Shown: positions 18,102-29,587 of the stretch, in pieces
Position numbering within the stretch: position 1 is the first letter of the stretch
How the letters are laid out: each line of letters starts with the position of its first letter
DNA from: a phage
Length of the DNA: 44,706 bases
NCBI GenBank assembly: GCA_021454005.1
Contig: GCA_021454005.1_3939.1
Strand: one strand, 5' to 3'
The notes under the pieces: model-generated
Told to the model about the DNA's origin: nothing
The model's database searches: none
Seen by the model: the letters and a program-made list of their open reading frames with translations, nothing else
Translations under genes and position numbers: made by a program

Positions 18102-18296
18102 ATGCCTACAATCCTAGCAATTCTTCTAAAAAATCTAGGTAGCTTCTTCTGGAAACTCATTTTATCCCTTCTAAGTGAATACATGATTGAGAAAGTGTTC
18201 TTTAAGCTTGCAAGATACCTTGCGAGTAAAACAGACACACCTATTGATGATGAGTTCGTAGATAACTTAGAAAAAGCTTTTAAGGGGGAGAAATAA
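18102..18296 (+). CDS. small membrane protein (possible lysis-associated)
   Basis: 64 aa, hydrophobic N-terminal segment, RBS GAGGTG; function not established. Confidence 0.3.
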   Translation: MPTILAILLKNLGSFFWKLILSLLSEYMIEKVFFKLARYLASKTDTPIDDEFVDNLEKAFKGEK

Positions 18297-18668
18297 ATGA
18301 AGTGGCTAGAGGAAGCTTTTAAAAATAATATTGGTGCAATTGTAGTTGGTATTTTTAGTGTTATTGGGATGTATACCACTATGCAAGTTTCAAGTGGTAA
18401 GCAAGAAGTATCTGTCACAACAAAGTTACAGCAGCTAGATAATTATTCCAAAAGTAACTATTCAGCTATTCGTGATTTACAGTCTGACATGAGACTGATT
18501 CAGCTAGGGATGGAGAACCAGAAAGTTCAGTTAGAGAATGTTAAGGGTGAAAACGCAAAACTTACCAAAACTCTTGATAAATTCTCTGACAGTGTGAATA
18601 ATCTGGCTCAATCAGTATCAGCCCTCCAAGCTATTACTGAGAAGAACACAAAGAATACTGAAAAATAA
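18297..18668 (+). CDS. membrane-anchored coiled-coil protein (possible spanin-like)
   Basis: 123 aa with N-terminal TM helix (IGAIVVGIFSVIGMY) followed by heptad-like Q/L/N-rich region. Confidence 0.3.
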   Translation: MKWLEEAFKNNIGAIVVGIFSVIGMYTTMQVSSGKQEVSVTTKLQQLDNYSKSNYSAIRDLQSDMRLIQLGMENQKVQLENVKGENAKLTKTLDKFSDSVNNLAQSVSALQAITEKNTKNTEK

Positions 18669-18676
18669 AATTTTAA

Positions 18677-18708
18677 GGCTCCTTTTGACGGGAGCCTTTT
18701 TTGTTTTT
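18677..18708. terminator. bidirectional terminator at convergence of + and - strand blocks
   Basis: Hairpin GGCTCC-TTTTGACG-GGAGCC flanked by A-run upstream and T-run downstream, between convergent genes ending at 18668 and 18707. Confidence 0.6.
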
Positions 18709-19606
18709 ACTTACCTACTGACAAAGGCGCTTCAATCTTTCCTGCATGTTGGTAGTTGTTAATTCCACCGATAAAGTCACTTGCAGTGAGATGTTTTAGG
18801 TCACTTAAAGTGTTAAGTGGGATACCAATCTCAAAAGTTGGTGCATGGAACTCTTCATTGTTCATCAGTTCATAAACCTGCTTCATATGGTTCTGATAAA
18901 TCTGAGTATCTCCAAAGACACCTATCAAATATCGTGGAGTGTATCCAGTCATCTTACAAAGGACTTCCAGAATAAAACCATAAGATGCAATGTTAAACGG
19001 AAGCCCTAAAAAGGTGTCTACAGAACGCTGATACCATTGTAAGTCAACTTCACCCTCGTTGGTGATATAAATCTGAAACAGAACATGACAAGGTGCTAAA
19101 GCCATTGAGTTTGCTGCAATATCTGCTGCATTCCAAGCGTTAACAAGCATGTAACGGTCTGTGATATCACCCTTCATCTTCGCTACTAAGGTCTCTAACT
19201 GGTCTACAACACAACCATCATGACCCTCAAAGTTTCTCCACTGAACCCCGTAGATTCTACCACCTGCATCCTCTAACCAGTCTTGTTCAGAGGAATAATT
19301 AGAGCTTAACCAGCGTTTAAAATCATCTGACCAGATAGTCCAGCGTTCCCCATCATTTTCACCCCAAGTACGGTAACGAAGTTCACCAAGTTTATTCTCA
19401 CCATTCAGGAACCATAAAGCTTCCCCAATAACTTGCCGTGTAAACACCTGTTTAGATGTTAAGAGTGGGAAACCAGTTCGCATATCAAAACGAAACTGTG
19501 GTGGAGCAAATGCAGAGATAACATCTCCAGTTCGTGTAGTACGCAGTTCACCAACGGATAAAACATGGTTCAGGATATTTTTGTAACTCAAATCAGCTTG
19601 TGACAT
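18707..19606 (-). CDS. thyA: thymidylate synthase
   Basis: Motifs ALAPCHVLFQIY (active-site Cys), YQRSVDTFLGLPFNIASY, GRIYGVQWR closely match E. coli ThyA (recalled). Confidence 0.85.
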   Translation of the reverse strand: MSQADLSYKNILNHVLSVGELRTTRTGDVISAFAPPQFRFDMRTGFPLLTSKQVFTRQVIGEALWFLNGENKLGELRYRTWGENDGERWTIWSDDFKRWLSSNYSSEQDWLEDAGGRIYGVQWRNFEGHDGCVVDQLETLVAKMKGDITDRYMLVNAWNAADIAANSMALAPCHVLFQIYITNEGEVDLQWYQRSVDTFLGLPFNIASYGFILEVLCKMTGYTPRYLIGVFGDTQIYQNHMKQVYELMNNEEFHAPTFEIGIPLNTLSDLKHLTASDFIGGINNYQHAGKIEAPLSVGK

Positions 19607-19607
19607 A

Positions 19608-20153
19608 TCAAAAGTGTCCTTTTACTTGTGGAACATAAATTTCAAAGGTTGCTTTACCATCATCCGATGGCCTTGACTGTACCTTTGCAAATACACGGCT
19701 ATCATACAGCTTCTCAAAGAAGTTTTCAAAAGGTAAATGCACAGTGGCCTCTTCAGTAACTTTATGGAAGACTGTATGGAACACCACACCAGCATACGGT
19801 AAAGCATTGACAAGGACACCTGCACCACCAATTACAAAGACATCTTCATCAATAGAGCTATCAAGATACTTCAAAAATGCTCCAAATGACTCTTTACTGG
19901 CTTTAGCATACATTACATCATCTTTGCCAAAGTCTATGCCTAAGTATGGTACAGAATTTGTTAAGATTAGGTTTGCACGTTCTGGTAGAGGTTTACTACC
20001 CAGAGTCTTAAAAGTCTCATTACCCATCACTACTAAGTTATTTTTAGTGAGTCTCTTAAACTCTTGCATGTCCTGTTTATGTCGAGGCCACGGCATACCA
20101 GTTGGAGTACCAAACTCACCATTTTCACCACTTGCAAAGATTAATTTAATCAT
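19608..20153 (-). CDS. frd: dihydrofolate reductase
   Basis: N-terminus MIKLIFASGENGEFGTPTGMPW with LVVMGNETFKTLG..PLPER matches the DHFR fold signature; adjacent to thyA. Confidence 0.8.
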   Translation of the reverse strand: MIKLIFASGENGEFGTPTGMPWPRHKQDMQEFKRLTKNNLVVMGNETFKTLGSKPLPERANLILTNSVPYLGIDFGKDDVMYAKASKESFGAFLKYLDSSIDEDVFVIGGAGVLVNALPYAGVVFHTVFHKVTEEATVHLPFENFFEKLYDSRVFAKVQSRPSDDGKATFEIYVPQVKGHF

Positions 20154-20410
20154 TTTGTAAATCCTTTCTTAATGAACCAGTTGATAACACTCTTCACAAC
20201 TTTACTATGATGGTAGATAAAATGTGGAGAGGGTTGGTATGAACCATAAGCCCAGAAAGCGATAATTTCATTACACCCTGTGCATCGGGTACTTTCTTCA
20301 GCAATATGACCGTTGACTATTTCACTTACCTCACCTTGTAAGTCTGTACACCCGCAATGTGGACAACGGATAGGTGTTCCATCAGACTCATAGCAGTGTT
20401 CAATTTTCAT
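20150..20410 (-). CDS. small zinc-ribbon protein (hypothetical)
   Basis: 86 aa with CPHCGC...CTGC cysteine pairs; start overlaps DHFR stop. Confidence 0.35.
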   Translation of the reverse strand: MKIEHCYESDGTPIRCPHCGCTDLQGEVSEIVNGHIAEESTRCTGCNEIIAFWAYGSYQPSPHFIYHHSKVVKSVINWFIKKGFTK

Positions 20411-20926
20411 CTATTTAACCTCAAAAACTGGTTCAAGAACCAATATAAAGTCTACACAGTCATCTTCTTCATCCAGAATACCATCAAAGTTCTTAGGTAC
20501 AAAGTCGAAGAGGCTCATAGAATATCGGTCAGAAGTAACCCTGATAGTGTTCCCTATATTCTCTACAGTTAATATTGTACGGCTTTCTGTTACCTCACTT
20601 AGAAGATTACTCACAAAGTCATCTAAGAAGTGTTTCATCAGTGACTTGAAGCCTTTAGGGTAATCTGTACCAGAGTATGTTTCAATCTGAGGAACAAGCT
20701 TAACATTTATACTAGTCTTTGTTAAGAACGTTTTAGAGAACATGCTATCAGGTAGCTTACAAACAGTCTTTCCAGTACCTTCATGTTCAATCTCAACAAA
20801 ACCAGCTTCGTCTCCACATGTAACTATTTTAAAAGATGCTTCATTCTCATACTGTGAAGCCATAAACTTTTTAAGCATTTCTTTAAGGAAATCTGCATGA
20901 GCATCTTGTAAGTAGATATCAATCAT
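20411..20926 (-). CDS. hypothetical protein
   Basis: 171 aa ORF in - strand block; no motif recognised. Confidence 0.35.
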   Translation of the reverse strand: MIDIYLQDAHADFLKEMLKKFMASQYENEASFKIVTCGDEAGFVEIEHEGTGKTVCKLPDSMFSKTFLTKTSINVKLVPQIETYSGTDYPKGFKSLMKHFLDDFVSNLLSEVTESRTILTVENIGNTIRVTSDRYSMSLFDFVPKNFDGILDEEDDCVDFILVLEPVFEVK

Positions 20927-20939
20927 AGTTAATCACCTA

Positions 20940-21299
20940 TTATGGGAACAAGCACTTAATGTCATCGTTTTTGAAAACAAAACTTGTGTAGTTGTGACCA
21001 TCAACATCCAACCAAACAGCCTGAACATCCACACCATCAAGATTGTGGTAAAGTTCTTTGATGAAGTGGTCTTTCACAATCTGGCTGCTAGTTGTTTCCA
21101 GCTTAATGTTCGAGATTGCTGAACCTACAGCCATATAGCCCATGACCCGTTTCTTCTCAGTATGCTTAATCTTACCATCTTTGTAAGCCATAATGAGATT
21201 GGAAAGAATTTTTACACCATAATACTTTTCAAGGTGAGTAGGTACACCATAAAAGCCTAATGCGAAGTTTTCAGAGTGGATAATGTTTTCACGTTTCAT
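20940..21299 (-). CDS. hypothetical protein
   Basis: 119 aa ORF; no motif recognised. Confidence 0.35.
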   Translation of the reverse strand: MKRENIIHSENFALGFYGVPTHLEKYYGVKILSNLIMAYKDGKIKHTEKKRVMGYMAVGSAISNIKLETTSSQIVKDHFIKELYHNLDGVDVQAVWLDVDGHNYTSFVFKNDDIKCLFP

Positions 21300-21300
21300 A

Positions 21301-21600
21301 TTAATCTGCCAACCTTAAATTGAAATTAACACCAAATTTTTCACATACTTCCAACATATACTCAAGGGAGACGTTACCAGTGAGATGGATTATGTTGGAT
21401 ACACGAGCCTGAGAGATACCACAAATTTTAGCAACTTGCTCTTGAGAAAGACCTCTGGATTTAATCTCTCTCTTAAAACGATGTGCAACGAAATCTCTCA
21501 TTTCATCTACATCCATTGGACAAATATAACTCTCCATTTCAGCCTCTCTATCAGCCTCCCAATCATCTTGTGGGGCATAAGGGTCAAAAGCCTCATTCAT
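21301..21600 (-). CDS. putative helix-turn-helix DNA-binding protein
   Basis: HTH-like segment LSQEQVAKICGISQARVSNIIH preceded by acidic N-terminus; start taken at ATG 21600, overlapping upstream stop (ATGAATGA). Confidence 0.4.
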   Translation of the reverse strand: MNEAFDPYAPQDDWEADREAEMESYICPMDVDEMRDFVAHRFKREIKSRGLSQEQVAKICGISQARVSNIIHLTGNVSLEYMLEVCEKFGVNFNLRLAD

Positions 21601-21805
21601 CTTTCTTCTTCCGTTTGCGTGAAGTGTCAATCAATGAATCTATGTTTGTAGCCCTAACCTTTTCACGTTCATCGTTAAGATAATCATCAAGAGCCTTTTC
21701 AATCTGTGAATCATCTTGACAGATAACTGTAAAGACTGTAAAGCCATCTGTATCGTCAATTATCTTACCATAACCGCTTCTGGGATGTAACTTTTTAAGA
21801 GCCAT
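21593..21805 (-). CDS. hypothetical small protein
   Basis: 70 aa ORF with basic C-terminus (RKRKKKDE), coupled to downstream HTH gene. Confidence 0.3.
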   Translation of the reverse strand: MALKKLHPRSGYGKIIDDTDGFTVFTVICQDDSQIEKALDDYLNDEREKVRATNIDSLIDTSRKRKKKDE

Positions 21806-21806
21806 A

Positions 21807-22190
21807 TCAAATACCTGTGCAGCTTCTGTTTTCTAAGAAATACTCAACACCATACATAGCTTTTTGCATCAAATCTTCTTTAAACTGGATACGATGGTTG
21901 AGCATAGCCTGTACATCAATATCATCACGGTGTTTCTCTTTAATATTTGCAGATTGCAGGAAATACTCTGCAAGAACACGATACTGGTAGTCAGTTACCT
22001 TATCAGTCATCTCTGTCAAAGATTCTTCAGAGATTGGTTTAAGTAGTTCACCATTAGCCAGAGCAACACCTTTAACAATCTGGCAAGTGTCTTCTGGAAC
22101 ACCTGATAAGTCCACATTTGGAAGTTCTGTTGCATTGACTGGTAAGTTCATTGCCATAACCATTGCAGTAGCTAATAAAATCTTTTTCAT
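21807..22190 (-). CDS. secreted/periplasmic protein with signal peptide (hypothetical)
   Basis: N-terminus MKKILLATAMVMAMNLPVNA-TE looks like a Sec signal peptide with AxA-like site; RBS GAGGT; own promoter upstream. Confidence 0.45.
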   Translation of the reverse strand: MKKILLATAMVMAMNLPVNATELPNVDLSGVPEDTCQIVKGVALANGELLKPISEESLTEMTDKVTDYQYRVLAEYFLQSANIKEKHRDDIDVQAMLNHRIQFKEDLMQKAMYGVEYFLENRSCTGI

Positions 22191-22234
22191 AATGACCTCA
22201 AAGTTATATTAAATTTTGTATTACATTGAGTATA

Positions 22235-22263
22235 AAAATAAGCTATAACACCTGACTTGTCAA
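22235..22263 (-). promoter_or_regulatory. sigma70-like promoter for signal-peptide gene
   Basis: On - strand: TTGACA (22258-22263), 17 nt spacer, TATTTT (22235-22240); -35 extends as TTGACAAG..GGTG. Confidence 0.35.
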
Positions 22264-22282
22264 CAGACTTTATAGCTTATTT

Positions 22283-22656
22283 GGCAGATTTTTTATAAGG
22301 CTACTGCCATCCTTCCATACCCTACCTTACCACACCTAACCATACCTAACCAAACTACACCATACAATACCTTATTAAAAGACCCTCTTAAAGACCTTTT
22401 AAAAAGGTAAGTCTCATTTTAATGTAGCTGAGACTAACTACCCACACCTTACCTCACCTGACCTGACCTGACCATACCTAGCATTACCGTGCCACACCTC
22501 ACTTAAAAACCCTCTTAGAAGACTCTTAAGTGATGTAATCGGATTTTAATGTAGCTCCGATTAACTACCCGCACTTTACCAAACCTCACCCTACCCTACC
22601 AGACCTTACCTAACCGCGCCGTACCTCATTAAAAGACCCTCTTAAAGACCTTTTAA
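22283..22656. repeat. intergenic modular repeat array A (3 units)
   Basis: Hairpins at 22283-22308, 22410-22435, 22536-22563; G-depleted tracts at 22309-22374, 22436-22499, 22564-22628; second hairpin family at 22375-22402, 22500-22532, 22629-22656. Confidence 0.7.
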
Positions 22657-22678
22657 AAAGGAGCCTCCGAAGAGGCTA
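22651..22678 (-). terminator. rho-independent terminator (UUCG tetraloop) after 146-aa gene
   Basis: On - strand: AGCCTC-TTCG-GAGGCT followed by CC TTTTT; 10 nt after stop of gene 22689..23129. Confidence 0.5.
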
Positions 22679-22688
22679 CCTAGTCAAC

Positions 22689-23129
22689 TTAGAAAGGTTT
22701 TCTACGTTGCTTGTTAATGTTAGCTTTCATAGCAGCTAAATGGTTTTGCTGTTCAATTAGTCGTGAACGTTCTTGATGGCTAAGTACCATAGTGTTCACA
22801 TTCTCAATCGCTTGAGTGGCTTGCTTTAAAGCACGACCAATCTTACCAGACATTTTACGTTTTGCAATAGTTGCTTGATGCTTAGGTTCAACCACACGAT
22901 AACCAACACCCATTGAAGCAACCAGATAAATCTTCTCTTCTTTAAGAAGCTTCTCAATAAACTTCTCAAGTCGATTTAAGCGTGTAAGCGCATAAGCCTT
23001 CATTTCATCTTCGTACTTAACAATGTCACCTTGATAAGTTGGCTTCACAATACCTAAGAAGGTGTCCATCTCAGAATGTGATACAGTGTCACCGTAACTA
23101 AACTTTGCTGCTAATGCTTTTGTATTCAT
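22689..23129 (-). CDS. hypothetical protein (cassette gene 2)
   Basis: 146 aa ORF, basic C-terminus (KANINKQRRKPF); no motif recognised; between repeat arrays. Confidence 0.4.
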   Translation of the reverse strand: MNTKALAAKFSYGDTVSHSEMDTFLGIVKPTYQGDIVKYEDEMKAYALTRLNRLEKFIEKLLKEEKIYLVASMGVGYRVVEPKHQATIAKRKMSGKIGRALKQATQAIENVNTMVLSHQERSRLIEQQNHLAAMKANINKQRRKPF

Positions 23130-23131
23130 AA

Positions 23132-23737
<606 letters not shown>

Positions 23738-23760
23738 TTAGTTGATTGTTAAGTTGTTTG

Positions 23761-24098
23761 TAAAGAACCCTCAATAGAAGACTCTTTAGAAACTTGGTAG
23801 ATTTTTAACGTGGCTACTACCATCCACCCACACTTTGCCATACCTCACCGCGCCTTACCCGACCGGGCTGCACCTTGCCTTGCCAAACATCACTTAAAAA
23901 CCCTATGAGATACCCTATCGAGTATAATTTAAAGGCTCTTAAGTGATGTAAGTCTCATTTTAATGTAGCTGAGACTAACTACCCATACCCTACTTTACCT
24001 TGCCGTACCGTACTTTACCCGACCACACCGGACAATACTTAACCCTACCTCACCCGACCGGACATCACTTAAAAACCCTCTTAGAAGACTCTTAAGTG
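23761..24098. repeat. intergenic modular repeat array B (2-3 units)
   Basis: Second-family hairpins at 23761-23788, 23891-23945, 24066-24098; first-family hairpins at 23796-23821, 23951-23976; G-depleted tracts at 23822-23890, 23977-24065. 24066-24098 equals 22500-22532; 23951-23976 equals 22410-22435. Confidence 0.7.
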
Positions 24099-24131
24099 AT
24101 GCTGGTGAGTACCCGTTGGTCTATGCTGCTC

Positions 24132-24159
24132 AGTATACTCACCAAATTTTCTATGTCAA
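24132..24159 (-). promoter_or_regulatory. sigma70-like promoter firing into repeat array B
   Basis: On - strand: TTGACA (24154-24159), 16 nt spacer, TATACT (24132-24137), just downstream of ligase stop; overlaps inverted repeat GGTGAGTA/TACTCACC (24104-24141). Confidence 0.35.
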
Positions 24160-24165
24160 CAACTT

Positions 24166-25266
24166 TTATTCATAATCTCGTATAACGAGACCAACAGGGA
24201 ACTGTAAAGAACCCTTACGAGTCATCTTCTGGAACTGAACCGTTAAAGGTTTCCCGATAAACTCTTCAGGATGCTCAGCAAGATACTGTTTCTTCTCATG
24301 AGTAGTCTTCCATGAGACATCTACAAAGACGTTAGGAAGAGTCTCTACAACGAACTTACCATGACCACGTTTATCAGTCTTTACACCAGTAACTTTAAAC
24401 TCTTCAGTGTGCATCTTCTTGTGCTTAATCAAGAAGTATGAACGGTGACCACACTCATAGAAAGATTCTTCAGAGATTGAACGGTACATTGCACCTTCAA
24501 ACTTAGCTTCAACCCACTTATCATGAGCTTCATCAAACTCTTCCCAAGAATTTACACGGATAGTCTGTACAGGAACAACTCTACAGGTATCCCCAAGCTC
24601 AACAATAGGTGAGTTATCAATAACTTCACGACGCTCAGGCCAAGATTTTGAATTGTCACAGATATCATACCAGTAGAATTTAAGAAGGTGACGGTCTGGA
24701 TTGTCAGCATTCTTAATCATAGATACAATATCTTCTAAGTCCCAACCATGAGCATAAATCTCTCCGTCAAAGTCTTCAACTTGCGGATGTAATTTAAGCA
24801 ACAAAAGCAAATCTGGGATTAGTTCTGTTGGAACGTTGTAAACAGTATTCTCACGAGAATAAGCTGTGAAACTGACTGAATCAGCATCTCTTGAGATTCT
24901 ACAACGTACACCATCAAGTTTTGGTTGAGCATCAGCAGGGAACTTCAGATACTTTGCATGACTAACCTTTGCAGCATCATGAGCAAGCTGTACACCTACC
25001 TTCTCAGTATTCTGTGCAGACTCTTTTGTGTAAGCATAACCTTTACGGTCAACTTGCTTTTTATACTTAGCAGCAACTTCAAAGAGAGCTTGCTGTTCAG
25101 CGTTACGCTCATTCTTTTTACCGATGTTCTTAGGCTCTGCTGTATACTCTTCAAACATCATCTTGCCATTCTCTTTACCATAGGTTGTAATAACTTTGTC
25201 ACCTACAGCAACACATGACCAGACGTTGAAGGAACCATCTTTATTTTGTTTGTACAGAATTGTCAT
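24166..25266 (-). CDS. ATP-dependent DNA ligase
   Basis: Adenylation motif KLDGVRC (KxDG); size about 366 aa; start set at ATG 25266 with RBS GAGGT. Confidence 0.8.
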   Translation of the reverse strand: MTILYKQNKDGSFNVWSCVAVGDKVITTYGKENGKMMFEEYTAEPKNIGKKNERNAEQQALFEVAAKYKKQVDRKGYAYTKESAQNTEKVGVQLAHDAAKVSHAKYLKFPADAQPKLDGVRCRISRDADSVSFTAYSRENTVYNVPTELIPDLLLLLKLHPQVEDFDGEIYAHGWDLEDIVSMIKNADNPDRHLLKFYWYDICDNSKSWPERREVIDNSPIVELGDTCRVVPVQTIRVNSWEEFDEAHDKWVEAKFEGAMYRSISEESFYECGHRSYFLIKHKKMHTEEFKVTGVKTDKRGHGKFVVETLPNVFVDVSWKTTHEKKQYLAEHPEEFIGKPLTVQFQKMTRKGSLQFPVGLVIRDYE

Positions 25267-25459
25267 TTTTAACCTCTGAGTGATACCAAGTATTGCAAGC
25301 ATTACATGCGTAAAGCTCTAAGTCATTTTTATCTGGTTTGTGGAAACAGTTTGACCCACAACGACACCGGAATAGCTTACCATCAACACGAAGAATGAAT
25401 GTTTCAAGCTCACCATCTTCTGTAAGAACTGCGTTCTTAAATTTATCTTCTACAGTCAT
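25241..25459 (-). CDS. small zinc-finger protein (hypothetical)
   Basis: 72 aa with CRC...CNAC cysteine pairs; 3' end overlaps ligase start. Confidence 0.3.
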   Translation of the reverse strand: MTVEDKFKNAVLTEDGELETFILRVDGKLFRCRCGSNCFHKPDKNDLELYACNACNTWYHSEVKNDNSVQTK

Positions 25460-25662
25460 TTTCTCTTACCACCAATCTCTACGTCGATAACTTGAACATC
25501 GCCAGCAACATCAAACTTATGAATGATGCTTTCCACAGTGTAAGTCCAACCCTCAATGCGAACCAACTCACCTTCTCGTGGGACGATTGGATTACGTTGA
25601 GCTACGGTTGTAGTGGAGTGAACAACATCATAACAATAGATGTAGTTTACTAAGACTTCCAT
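25456..25662 (-). CDS. hypothetical small protein
   Basis: Start set at ATG 25662 with RBS GAGGT 7 nt upstream; the longer ORF-track version overlaps the lipoprotein gene. Confidence 0.3.
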   Translation of the reverse strand: MEVLVNYIYCYDVVHSTTTVAQRNPIVPREGELVRIEGWTYTVESIIHKFDVAGDVQVIDVEIGGKRK

Positions 25663-25672
25663 CGTGAAAACC

Positions 25673-25942
25673 TCACTCAATAACCGTAGTGTGTGATTGA
25701 CCATTTTTGCCATAGCTATAAGATGTTGTTGTTTGGGAGTTTGGACATCTGACAACAACAATATCTCTGCTTATAGCATCACCATGTAACTTGTATACTC
25801 TGCAATCTTGCATCTCTGGTGGGAGACTGTAAGAAGCATTTTTATCTTCATAAGAAGGGTTGCAGCCAGATAGAAAAACAACACCAAGCGCAATTACTGC
25901 TTTCCACATAATACTTCCCCAGAGACTGTACATTTTCTTCAT
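25673..25942 (-). CDS. putative lipoprotein
   Basis: N-terminal hydrophobic segment ending in lipobox-like FLSGC; 89 aa. Confidence 0.45.
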   Translation of the reverse strand: MKKMYSLWGSIMWKAVIALGVVFLSGCNPSYEDKNASYSLPPEMQDCRVYKLHGDAISRDIVVVRCPNSQTTTSYSYGKNGQSHTTVIE

Positions 25943-26172
25943 AGCAACTCCAGAATATCAATACGTTCACCTTTGAGTACTCCAGTACGGTCTTTTGCAA
26001 TCTTACCGTCAACGATAAGGATGTGTGTAGACCTTAAAGTGTCGCTGTTAAAGGTTTTTACGAACTTGCTAGGCATCACTACAATACACATCTCCTGAAT
26101 CAACTCTGGAGTATAGCAATTGTCGTGAAGTTGCTGAATAACGTCTGCAAGTGTCATTTTTGATGTCTCCAA
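25939..26172 (-). CDS. small protein, paralog of 26360..26569
   Basis: C-terminus DGKIAKDRTGVLKGERIDILELL matches GGKIAKDKTGYLKGERVDIENLL in the other copy. Confidence 0.4.
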   Translation of the reverse strand: METSKMTLADVIQQLHDNCYTPELIQEMCIVVMPSKFVKTFNSDTLRSTHILIVDGKIAKDRTGVLKGERIDILELL

Positions 26173-26363
26173 TATTCAATATCTACAAGTTCTTGTGCAA
26201 TGCTTTTAAGGTTACTTTTAAGGAAAACTTTCTCACCACCAGACAGGGAAGTGTTATCAATGAGTCTATTCATTCTCTCAAACAACTTCTGCTTACGGTT
26301 CTTGATAGTTTCCTTTGAAGCACCTTTCATCATCGCTGCATGGGTTCTTCCACGGTGACTCAT
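26154..26363 (-). CDS. small basic protein (hypothetical)
   Basis: 69 aa Lys/Arg-rich ORF between the two paralogs. Confidence 0.3.
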   Translation of the reverse strand: MSHRGRTHAAMMKGASKETIKNRKQKLFERMNRLIDNTSLSGGEKVFLKSNLKSIAQELVDIEYWRHQK

Positions 26364-26569
26364 AGCAAATTCTCGATGTCTACACGTTCACCTTTTAAGT
26401 ACCCTGTCTTATCTTTTGCGATTTTCCCTCCAGCAATAAAGATATCTGCTATACGCAGAGCTTCAGGGTTTACTCTATAACCACTGCAAATAACAATAAG
26501 CATGTCTTCAATCTCTTTTTGAGAATAACCTGCACATTGCAACTGAACTTCAATCTCTGAAAGCGTCAT
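26360..26569 (-). CDS. small protein, paralog of 25939..26172
   Basis: 69 aa; shared C-terminal motif; RBS AGGAGG; conserved TTGACAAGGTG box upstream. Confidence 0.4.
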   Translation of the reverse strand: MTLSEIEVQLQCAGYSQKEIEDMLIVICSGYRVNPEALRIADIFIAGGKIAKDKTGYLKGERVDIENLL

Positions 26570-26630
26570 GTGACCTCCTATACAAGATACAGTATAAGGT
26601 ACTCTTCCATGAGCACCTTGTCAATACTAA

Positions 26631-29330
26631 TTAGTGAACCTCAAGCCAGCTTTTACCAACCTTACCAGTACCTGTAACAAGTGTTTCTTTCTTAAGACCT
26701 AAGTTCTTAGAAGCTTGTCCATAATACCAGTCAGTAACCGCTTTCACCTCTGCCGTCATGCTTTCTGGACATTCCCAACTCGTCTCATCGTGATATGCGC
26801 AGAGTAAACGAGCACCAATAGCTGGTTTGCGACCATTCAACTTCATCAAGCCTTCGTCAATCATACGACGACAAGCAAGGTTAATCGCCTCATTTTGAAT
26901 CTGAGCCTCTGAACCCATCAAAAGATAGTTCAATAATTTGTGTGGAGATTTACACCACAACCAAGCTCCAGCAACCTTTACAAAACCACCTTTAGAGATT
27001 GCAGCAGTCTTACCAAATACCTCTTCAAGTGCCTTTTTAGTTGCTTTGTAGTCAGCTTCCAAGTCATCTAGCAGCTTTTTAATTTTAGGCAAACGAATAA
27101 AGTAAGTCTGTTTAGTCAGCGCACCTTCCTGAGTAGTTGCAGCTTTAATCGTCTTAGCAAACTTCTCATCACCTGCACCGAACAGCAGTGCATAGATACC
27201 ATTCTTAGCTTTCTTACGACCCTTGCTAATCTCATGAAGAAGATTCTCATCCTGAGTAGCTCGACAAGTCAAGATGTCCTGCTCATCGTTCAAGTTAAAG
27301 TAAATACTGTTCAGTGTATGTGCATCAGTCCCTGAATAGACAACGTACAGGTCATTCTCAGAGTCATAGCGAAGGTACTTATCAATCTCTGGGTTAAGGT
27401 ACTCATCAAAGTGTTTACAGTAATAGCGTCCATCTTCTTGACGAATGAACTCAATTTCTTCTTTACCTTGCGTTACCGCTTTGGTGAAGTCTTTATCACC
27501 CATAAAGTTACAAAGAAGAACTAGCTGGGCTGAGTTCATGTCTACAGAGACAACGTTAGTACCTTCCTCACAAATCCACACTGCCCTCATTGGTTCCCCA
27601 TAGACAGCAGCACCAGACGGTACGTTTACAATACCATACTGTGTCATACGTCCAGTTGAAGTACCAAACACCATTGCACCAGCACTAAGGCGACCATCAG
27701 GACGAATCTGGTTCAACCAACCTTTTTCATCATCCTTTGAGTTCTCAATAGTTCTGCGTCGGTGCATCAAAGTGTAGTATTTAGCAATCTTCTGTCCAAG
27801 CTCACCTTCAATCGTATCGTAAGATGATTCAGTAAGTTTTGGTGAAGTACGGATTAAGCAAGGCTCAAGCAAATCTGTGTACTTCTTCACAGACCAGTTA
27901 TGCTCAATGTACTGGACGCCTTCGTGTTCAACATAACTCAAACCACACCGCTCAACCATTTCCTGCCACTTAGGATGCTTTGTAATCATCTTTTTATTGT
28001 CTTTGAAACGACAAACTTTGACAGGGCGACCATCAGAGTCTTTCTTGTAGTTCCAGTCATCTGGAATCCAACCAACTGATTTCAAGTAGTCTTTAACAAC
28101 TGCTACCTGAGTCATACGAGAAACTTCAAACTCAATTGGTGTATATGGTGCATCAATCAAACCTGTGTAGCGACTTGACTCAAGTTCAAAGTGGTTAACA
28201 ACGTGGCTGTTATAGTACTTCACAGTTTTGACTGTTTTTACTGGCTTCCAGTCTTTGCATTTCTTGCCAATCTTTGCGTTCAACTCATTGCAAATTGCAC
28301 GAGCATCCTTCATTGCTACAAAGCCTTCCTTGTACTCTTCACCAGTTACAGTGTTGGTTGGTGTATAGCAATTCCTTTTTTCAATGTTAAAAATCTTTGT
28401 AGTTGGCTTACCAAATGGTTTGATTTCGTATGTCTGCATCTCGCCATTACGTACCTGCTGACGATACTTTGTCTTAGGGTACTTGGTAATTCTTTTCAGT
28501 CCATCTGCATGACCAAATGTTTCAACATACTCATTCCAAGCTTTTGCAAACTCTTCTCCAGTGACTTTACCTTTGGTCTTAATAGTTGGAGGTAGATGTG
28601 GTTCAACCTCTGAAGCAAGCTCATTAGTCAACTTGTCAAGTTCCTTTACATGGAACTCCATAAGCTCTTTATCAGCTTTCCAACCATTGATAGCTTGTTG
28701 ACTCATCCAGAAAGATGTTTCTTTAGCTCGCATGTAGGTTTCATAAGTGTCTATGCCACACTTCTTAAGCTTGAGATACTCATTATCAAGTGCCCGTTTA
28801 GTTTTGGCGTTAATACGGATATCTTCTACAACACGAGTGAAGATTTCTGCATTCCACACACCCCAATGTTCAATCTCTGGTTTACGAACACCGACACGAG
28901 CACCCCATGCAGCCAAACCATGAGCACCTTTATAACCCTTTGGAGTTGGTCTATCCATCCACTGAACACGAGACTGGATAAGAGAATCCTGAAAGAAATT
29001 ACTCCACGGTTTACACTTTGGATTATCAAAGTTCCATAAATCGGGTGCAATGTGATTGAAAACCCACCAGTCATAACCAAGACCATTATGAATGCAAAGA
29101 CGTTTTGCCTTTAACGCAAATTCAATACCTTCACGTAAGCCACCCTTAATGTACTTGGTATACTTGTGACCGAGGATAGGCTCATCTGTAAAGACCCATA
29201 CAGGTGGCTCTTCATCGTCAGATTTATAGTCTGCGAAAGCCATTACGTGCACTTTAGTGAACTCAAGGAGTAAACCATCAGTTTCTGTATCACCAACTAA
29301 ATGTAAGTTTTTAAAATCTACGTTTTCCAT
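26631..29330 (-). CDS. DNA polymerase, family A (T7-like)
   Basis: Exo motif GDTETDGL; Pol A motif B RKKAKNGIYALLFGAG; motif C YHDE; start set at ATG 29330 with RBS GAGGGAG. Confidence 0.85.
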   Translation of the reverse strand: MENVDFKNLHLVGDTETDGLLLEFTKVHVMAFADYKSDDEEPPVWVFTDEPILGHKYTKYIKGGLREGIEFALKAKRLCIHNGLGYDWWVFNHIAPDLWNFDNPKCKPWSNFFQDSLIQSRVQWMDRPTPKGYKGAHGLAAWGARVGVRKPEIEHWGVWNAEIFTRVVEDIRINAKTKRALDNEYLKLKKCGIDTYETYMRAKETSFWMSQQAINGWKADKELMEFHVKELDKLTNELASEVEPHLPPTIKTKGKVTGEEFAKAWNEYVETFGHADGLKRITKYPKTKYRQQVRNGEMQTYEIKPFGKPTTKIFNIEKRNCYTPTNTVTGEEYKEGFVAMKDARAICNELNAKIGKKCKDWKPVKTVKTVKYYNSHVVNHFELESSRYTGLIDAPYTPIEFEVSRMTQVAVVKDYLKSVGWIPDDWNYKKDSDGRPVKVCRFKDNKKMITKHPKWQEMVERCGLSYVEHEGVQYIEHNWSVKKYTDLLEPCLIRTSPKLTESSYDTIEGELGQKIAKYYTLMHRRRTIENSKDDEKGWLNQIRPDGRLSAGAMVFGTSTGRMTQYGIVNVPSGAAVYGEPMRAVWICEEGTNVVSVDMNSAQLVLLCNFMGDKDFTKAVTQGKEEIEFIRQEDGRYYCKHFDEYLNPEIDKYLRYDSENDLYVVYSGTDAHTLNSIYFNLNDEQDILTCRATQDENLLHEISKGRKKAKNGIYALLFGAGDEKFAKTIKAATTQEGALTKQTYFIRLPKIKKLLDDLEADYKATKKALEEVFGKTAAISKGGFVKVAGAWLWCKSPHKLLNYLLMGSEAQIQNEAINLACRRMIDEGLMKLNGRKPAIGARLLCAYHDETSWECPESMTAEVKAVTDWYYGQASKNLGLKKETLVTGTGKVGKSWLEVH

Positions 29331-29376
29331 TTTTACTCCCTCTAAAATCATTAACCTCATACATTACTGCAAAAAA

Positions 29377-29382
29377 TTATAA
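29377..29382 (-). promoter_or_regulatory. candidate -10 (TATAAT) for DNA polymerase gene
   Basis: Perfect TATAAT on - strand about 47 nt upstream of the pol start; no well-spaced -35. Confidence 0.25.
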
Positions 29383-29526
29383 AAAGCAAGTTGACAATGC
29401 ACTTGACAAGGTGCTAATCTTTGCGAAGTGGGTTTTTACTTAAAAGGTTACTTAACAGTTTAACTATACAGATACTTTAAAACTCTTAAAAGATTATTTA
29501 ATAGCTTTTAAAAAGCTTTAAAGTAT

Positions 29527-29543
29527 AACGTATAGAATACGTT
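29527..29543 (+). promoter_or_regulatory. palindrome overlapping TAGAAT -10-like hexamer
   Basis: AACGTA-TAGAA-TACGTT inverted repeat in AT-rich region; TAGAAT at 29533-29538 matches the -10 of promoters at 33910 and 34249. Confidence 0.3.
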
Positions 29544-29587
29544 AAGATAAAAGATTAAAACTCAATAGTTACTTAAAAGAGGCTTAC

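Follow-up and report, generated by a model that had tools for sequence, protein, structure and literature searches.

ORF A and ORF B in the replication-gene block

We analysed two small open reading frames (ORFs) in a phage contig of 44,706 nucleotides (GCA_021454005.1_3939.1; this whole stretch is called the window here): ORF B, at 25673 to 25942, which encodes a predicted lipoprotein, and ORF A, at 21807 to 22190, which encodes a predicted secreted protein. The window covers roughly one half of the genome of a Felixounavirus (Felix O1-like phage). A stretch of 4.7 kb that surrounds the two genes matches 260 phage records at 80–99% identity, almost all of them Felixounavirus, with hosts that include E. 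coli, Salmonella, Shigella and Citrobacter. Positions ~5–50 kb of Escherichia phage JohannRWettstein/Bas63 (hereafter Bas63) are the rough counterpart of the window. Both genes lie in a minus-strand block (18707-29360) that also encodes DNA polymerase, DNA ligase, a helix-turn-helix (HTH) regulator, DHFR and thymidylate synthase. Their placement among early genes in the first-pass annotation is reasonable given this gene order, which puts both in a replication-gene (early or middle) cluster. That annotation described the two products as envelope-targeted proteins of a kind that often mediates superinfection exclusion or modifies receptors; our results confirm the observation and support part of the interpretation. 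Sequence evidence supports the export of both proteins and shows the family to which each belongs.

The features of ORF B are as follows.

25673 to 25942, minus strand: ORF B, lipoprotein precursor, 89 residues from ATG 25942 (long form) or 78 residues from ATG 25909; matches phrog_902 (E=7e-17)
25865 to 25942, minus strand: predicted signal peptide, long-form residues 1-26, ending in the lipobox residues L-S-G
25862 to 25864, minus strand: codon of Cys27, predicted to be lipid-modified
25676 to 25861, minus strand: predicted mature periplasmic domain after the lipidated cysteine, with a beta-rich model and conserved motifs
25914 to 25920, minus strand: Shine-Dalgarno sequence GGGGAAG for the conserved start ATG 25909
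25948 to 25951, minus strand: Shine-Dalgarno sequence GGAG for the upstream start ATG 25942, which overlaps the stop of an upstream 77-residue ORF (ATGA)

The N-terminus of ORF B reads MKKMYSLWGSIMWKAVIALGVVFLSGC followed by NPSYEDK, with the lipobox L-S-G-C behind the hydrophobic leader that had been noted at first pass. We applied a lipobox rule of the PROSITE PS51257 type, which calls for Lys or Arg in the first 7 residues, six uncharged residues and then [LIVMFWSTAG]2-[LIVMFYSTAGCQ]-[AGS]-C, with the cysteine between positions 15 and 35. ORF B conforms to this rule from either candidate start. When all starts in six frames were scanned, it was the sole real gene in the 44.7-kb window to do so, the one further match being a short antisense ORF inside a tail-fibre gene.

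Most homologues begin at the internal methionine encoded by ATG 25909 (MWKAVIALGVVFLSGC, MWK..., 78 residues), a start that has its own Shine-Dalgarno sequence (GGGGAAG/GGAGAAG). The 11-codon extension from ATG 25942 is present here and in the close relatives LMP34, ESCO50, P0001 and P0057. Other Felixounaviruses carry a small extra gene between the upstream 77-residue ORF and ORF B; this gene is missing here, so that the in-frame upstream ATG comes to lie in an ATGA overlap with the preceding stop. Translation from either start is predicted to yield a lipoprotein precursor. The neighbouring genes encode soluble proteins of 77 and 68 residues, and ORF B itself sits between the genes for DNA polymerase and ligase. 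ORF B is 100% identical to a protein of phage vB_EcoM_LMP34. A 95% identical homologue in Escherichia phage dune (locus L012, 4507-4749) is unannotated in its record, which annotates instead an overlapping long form of the downstream 68-residue ORF; the lipoprotein gene is thus under-annotated in the genus.

ORF A lies downstream in the same block, with these features.

21807 to 22190, minus strand: ORF A, precursor of a secreted periplasmic protein, 127 residues; matches phrog_4332 (E=9.9e-67)
22131 to 22190, minus strand: Sec-type signal peptide, residues 1-20, predicted cleavage between VNA and TE
21810 to 22130, minus strand: mature ORF A, about 107 residues, predicted all-helical from secondary structure only (model at pLDDT 40), with Cys36 and Cys124 invariant
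22196 to 22199, minus strand: Shine-Dalgarno sequence GAGG, 6 nt before the ATG
22235 to 22263, minus strand: sigma-70-like promoter TTGACA-17-TATTTT, 10 of 12 consensus positions
22662 to 22677, minus strand: terminator-like hairpin at the end of the upstream transcription unit

The N-terminus of ORF A, MKKILLATAMVMAMNLPVNA followed by TE, has a KK n-region, an uncharged hydrophobic core of 13 residues and V-N-A at the -3 to -1 positions. This is the n-h-c design of a Sec signal peptide with small residues at -3 and -1, and it is kept in homologues. A crude n/h/c rule run over 413 ATG-started candidates flagged three real genes, namely ORF A, ORF B and the membrane anchor of the ORF at 18297-18668, together with a few internal or out-of-frame ORFs. 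Homologues that are only 32–34% identical to ORF A retain the MKK start, the hydrophobic core, Ala at -1 and both Cys36 and Cys124. Such conservation in divergent homologues is better evidence for export than prediction from a single sequence, and the signal peptide proposed at first pass is borne out by it. The two invariant cysteines are as expected of a protein predicted to fold in the oxidising periplasm.

Upstream of ORF A, the order of elements is the hairpin (22677-22662), about 370 nt of repeats, the promoter and GAGG. The promoter that had been assigned to this gene is indeed present at 22263-22235. Promoter-like matches in the region are not enriched (13 found, 12.0 expected from shuffles), so support for the promoter is positional rather than statistical. 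Because the hairpin ends the upstream unit, ORF A would open a new one that runs into the genes for the HTH regulator, DHFR and thymidylate synthase.

Hidden Markov model (HMM) comparison assigns ORF A to phrog_4332, a family without known function. The protein occurs in 259 phage records and in essentially every Ounavirinae genome, and the records fall into two classes, one at ≥93% identity and one at about 30–35%. An exhaustive phmmer search of 1.8 billion representatives returned five related clusters and one spurious match. By these comparisons, ORF A is an orphan found in nearly all Ounavirinae and confined to them. Three records carry Felixounavirus sequence under other host names, GU169904.1 ('Staphylococcus phage SA1') and two 'Campylobacter' entries, with about 97% protein identity to ORF A; these are probably mislabelled or chimeric deposits.

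The ORF B family and its membrane anchor

ORF B matches phrog_902, which is likewise an HMM family without known function, and by tblastn the family is present in 585 phage records. The gene is carried by Felixounavirus, Mooglevirus, Vequintavirinae, Stephanstirmvirinae and the jumbo phages Asteriusvirus and Eneladusvirus, and further by T5-like Vibrio phages (Demerecviridae), Acinetobacter Saclayvirus, Aeromonas phages and Klebsiella phages. T4-like phages of Acinetobacter and Aeromonas were added by further searches. When 5.8 billion proteins were searched with a profile, 52 clusters were returned, and the largest contigs holding them are of phage size (85–370 kb), so the family appears to be phage-only, with no chromosomal bacterial copies seen. 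As judged from these searches, it seems to occur in many large virulent phages of gamma-proteobacteria that are not related to one another. A precomputed PF16225 label, which we take to denote DUF4884, is attached to 50 of the 52 clusters; this label was not reproduced by hmmscan against a current copy of Pfam-A at E<=10. Several members are named 'Lipoprotein' in UniRef and all others 'hypothetical'. Fold searches in BFVD added proteins of Aeromonas (T4-like) and Acinetobacter phages to the members found by sequence, and three of these are also named 'Lipoprotein'.

Conserved features were compared across 47 family members that are 26–90% identical to ORF B. A rule-conforming lipobox is present in 46 of the 47, which, together with its uniqueness among the real genes of the window, upholds the lipobox first proposed for ORF B. 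Of the lipobox-bearing members, 44 contain exactly two further cysteines, and the family shares the motifs Y-x-LP, DC-x-(V/I)Y, VV-x-CPN(S/A)-x-T and GK. The two conserved cysteines of the mature protein probably form a disulfide. The mature form has 63 residues, four of which are proline, and its AlphaFold2 model is a small beta structure with five predicted strands.

The residue after the lipidated cysteine (+2) varies among the 46 members with a lipobox. It is Asp in 22, including E. coli jumbo and rV5-like phages, and Asn in 10, including the Felix type. In enterobacteria, Asp at +2 is a Lol-avoidance signal that retains a lipoprotein in the inner membrane. Asn at this position in the Felix-type protein predicts the outer membrane. 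One metagenomic member, P0051, has a plain Sec-type signal (cleaved between LALA and KD) and no lipobox, and keeps the two-cysteine domain. Since about half of the members have Asp at +2, the anchor probably switches between the inner and outer membranes. If the anchoring membrane is not fixed, the domain would work in the periplasm whichever membrane holds it, and such independence of the anchor suggests that the target is a conserved one in the periplasm and not one specific receptor of the outer membrane.

Gene context was compared across eight unrelated phage lineages. In each of them the ORF B homologue is surrounded by small hypothetical genes, and in several it is near genes for ligase, thymidylate synthase, DHFR or polynucleotide kinase (PNK). 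No conserved partner or neighbour gene was seen across the eight lineages, nor did any of them have an annotated lysis gene beside the homologue; likewise, inspection of 11 loci showed no annotated receptor-binding gene adjoining the family gene. A copy at ≥60% identity occurs in about 196 records, whereas the region as a whole is represented in about 260 Ounavirinae-like records; there are also frameshifted variants of 64 residues. On this evidence ORF B is dispensable. In Escherichia phage PBECO4, a second and unrelated small lipoprotein (MIKKLLTVVFVFCTMFLTAC..., 91 residues, Cys-rich; locus L008, 3623-3898) is encoded two genes downstream of the ORF B homologue.

Candidate roles in the periplasm

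Our preferred account is that both ORFs encode real envelope-targeted proteins, made from replication-gene (early or middle) units and thus before the late genes, that would act in the periplasm and modify or protect the envelope of the infected cell. The ORF B precursor is predicted to be cut by signal peptidase II at the L-S-G/C junction, giving a lipidated, beta-rich protein of 63 residues with, probably, one disulfide. ORF A, putatively the first gene behind a host-type promoter, would be exported by Sec as an Ounavirinae-specific helical protein of about 107 residues with one conserved disulfide. Once there, both proteins may target either some conserved part of the envelope or the machinery of an incoming phage. 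On the model of the T4 proteins Sp and Imm, this would shield the infected cell through entry-step exclusion or by making it resistant to lysis from without. We put the probability of this whole account at roughly 40%. Protection or exclusion is the most likely single role for ORF B, and it is a tentative guess by analogy; for ORF A the same role is a guess of lower probability.

Several points weigh against this account. The signal calls for both proteins are rule-based predictions rather than SignalP or LipoP calls. The AlphaFold2 model of ORF B is of moderate confidence (predicted local distance difference test score, pLDDT, 65), and that of ORF A (pLDDT 40) suggests an all-helical protein and is unusable for fold searches. 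The timing of both genes, early or middle, is inferred from gene order and the promoter, a literature search having found no transcriptome of a Felix O1-like phage. A further point concerns the closest analogue of ORF A. T4 Spackle (Sp), the product of an early gene of a virulent myovirus, is likewise small, helical and exported by Sec and has a disulfide, and the periplasmic action on incoming machinery proposed here is the same in kind. ORF A has no sequence match to Spackle, however, and its model is too poor for a fold comparison. Spackle targets a tail lysozyme domain, whereas a scan of tail and baseplate proteins encoded in the window (half of the genome) detected no peptidoglycan-hydrolase or lysozyme domain, which leaves a Spackle-like role for ORF A without a visible target.

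Searches for a function gave no lead for either protein. Pfam, NCBIfam and PADLOC scans of both proteins returned only noise and no anti-defence matches, and profile searches of the PDB with both family alignments found no match. The literature on Felixounavirus spanins and lipoproteins, on DUF4884/PF16225 and on superinfection exclusion lipoproteins held no functional data on ORF A or ORF B.

The first-pass annotation considered a spanin role unlikely because the two genes are far from possible lysis genes at 18102-18668. Its conclusion stands, and a better reason than distance is that the genus has its own spanin pair. In Bas63, overlapping i-spanin and o-spanin genes, annotated with a spanin database, lie at 61777-62287, outside the region that corresponds to the window; an N-terminal membrane anchor is present in the i-spanin, and a lipobox distinct from that of ORF B, MSGC, in the o-spanin. 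ORF B is found in Bas63 as a hypothetical gene apart from this pair, at 29314-29550. ORF B resembles Rz1-type o-spanins in its small size, its lipobox and, in this phage, its predicted outer-membrane sorting, and the product of 18297-18668, with an N-terminal anchor and a coiled coil, might superficially pass for a partnerless i-spanin; that ORF is, however, called a holin in some records. We found no i-spanin gene embedding, overlapping or adjoining ORF B. An o-spanin should have conserved outer-membrane sorting and a proline-rich, unstructured domain, whereas the ORF B family often has Asp at +2, which is incompatible with an outer-membrane spanin, and ORF B itself has 4 prolines in 63 residues and predicted beta-strands. 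The gene is also missing or frameshifted in some members of the genus. We rejected ORF B as an o-spanin on these grounds; by sequence criteria neither ORF is a spanin, and the idea that ORF B is an unlinked o-spanin, or that either protein is part of the lysis machinery, is effectively refuted.

The possible lysis genes at 18102-18668 are on the plus strand. The name 'holin' for the 123-residue ORF at 18297-18668 is found in some Felixounavirus records, while others, including that of the curated Bas63, have 'hypothetical'. The 64-residue ORF upstream of it is also hydrophobic and amphipathic. The spanin pair and endolysin of the genus lie far from this region, outside the window.

A different link to lysis would make ORF A, and possibly ORF B, a periplasmic regulator of lysis timing that binds the periplasmic domain of this 123-residue protein, in the manner of the T4 antiholin RI. 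The near universality of ORF A in Ounavirinae speaks for a core life-cycle function rather than an accessory gene, and the protein is small, secreted and predicted to be helical. The candidate holin has the topology of T4 holin T, with one membrane anchor and a large periplasmic domain, and the genus carries rIIA and rIIB. The argument is purely topological, however: ORF A has no sequence similarity to RI (no PDB or Pfam matches), and its signal is a cleavable AXA type rather than a SAR domain. Such a role seems improbable for either protein.

ORF B can also be compared with the lipoproteins Llp of T5 and Cor of T1 and phi80. On this reading the protein would be anchored in the inner leaflet of the outer membrane, where it would block the receptor used by the phage itself and so prevent both superinfection and losses of progeny to cell debris. 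Like ORF B, Llp and Cor are small lipoproteins (60-80 residues) of virulent phages (siphophages in their case), made before lysis, that are periplasmic, beta-rich and disulfide-containing; the probable disulfide of ORF B and the outer-membrane sorting expected from Asn at +2 in this phage fit the same pattern. Against it, no sequence or fold similarity to Llp or Cor was detected, and none to anything in the PDB. Felix O1-type phages use the lipopolysaccharide (LPS) core and not a protein receptor, FhuA-like or otherwise. The family is found in phages of at least five host genera (Vibrio, Acinetobacter, Aeromonas, Klebsiella and E. coli), and it is unlikely that these phages all use one receptor; many family members have the inner-membrane retention signal, and one is no lipoprotein at all. 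Genes of the Llp/Cor type lie next to the gene for the receptor-binding protein, and their products act on a porin or a TonB-dependent receptor (PMC11990801), whereas in the 11 loci inspected the ORF B family gene adjoins no annotated receptor-binding gene. The authors of the BASEL study regard the masking of an abundant glycan as futile for virulent phages (PMC11990801), which we also count against this reading. We consider receptor plugging of this kind a poor prospect, and the masking of a specific outer-membrane receptor less likely than exclusion or protection at the entry step.

The exported proteins might instead have nothing to do with competition between phages, and could neutralise a host defence or stress response at the envelope, stabilise the envelope throughout a long infection cycle or inhibit a host periplasmic hydrolase or protease. 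The spread of the ORF B family over large virulent phages of many hosts, its variable anchoring membrane and its lack of a conserved neighbour fit a conserved host periplasmic target. The scans gave no PADLOC or anti-defence match, however, and there is no specific pointer to any target. We rate this alternative as possible but doubtful.

Returning to protection and exclusion, a more specific form is that the ORF B family is a hitherto unrecognised periplasmic effector, common to large virulent phages of many gamma-proteobacterial hosts and directed at one conserved envelope machine, or at the apparatus by which rival phages deliver DNA across the periplasm, and confers broad, receptor-independent exclusion or protection with either membrane serving as a tether. 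This form is unlikely. If a single conserved periplasmic target were true, Felix O1-like, rV5-like, phi92-like, jumbo, T5-like and T4-like phages would have a receptor-independent envelope effector in common. This would matter for the design of phage cocktails, in which one component might exclude another, and for our view of how the Gram-negative envelope is conditioned by virulent phages. As matters stand, these are two hypothetical proteins, already catalogued as such in hundreds of genomes, for which predicted export is well supported. The most useful new points are that the lipoprotein family extends over a broad range of virulent phage lineages, that its membrane anchor varies and that it is separate from spanins and receptor-binding genes, along with the disulfide-bearing, subfamily-restricted nature of ORF A.

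Repeat arrays near ORF A

Two intergenic regions on the minus strand, 22289-22656 and 23775-24095, consist of 127-nt tandem units, each with a hairpin and a run of about 7–12 GGTNN pentamers. A search for (GGTNN)x5 with up to 2 mismatches gave 38 matches against 0.05 expected, all of them in these two regions. The ORF A/ORF B region has no match in Rfam, and the arrays themselves have none. With their triplets separated by 2 nt, the arrays are reminiscent of sites bound by ring-shaped RNA-binding proteins such as TRAP. In Bas63 there is one perfect tract, of 13 GGTNN units, immediately upstream of the ORF A homologue, and the rest of the 87 kb has none.

The two arrays flank a pair of minus-strand genes (22689-23734) that encode proteins of 146 and 200 residues, assigned to phrog_5926 and phrog_4652, both without known function. 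This pair is absent from Bas63, where ORF A and the ligase gene are separated by no more than a 147-nt ORF and one repeat tract. The pair may be an insertion/deletion cassette bounded by the GGTNN repeats.

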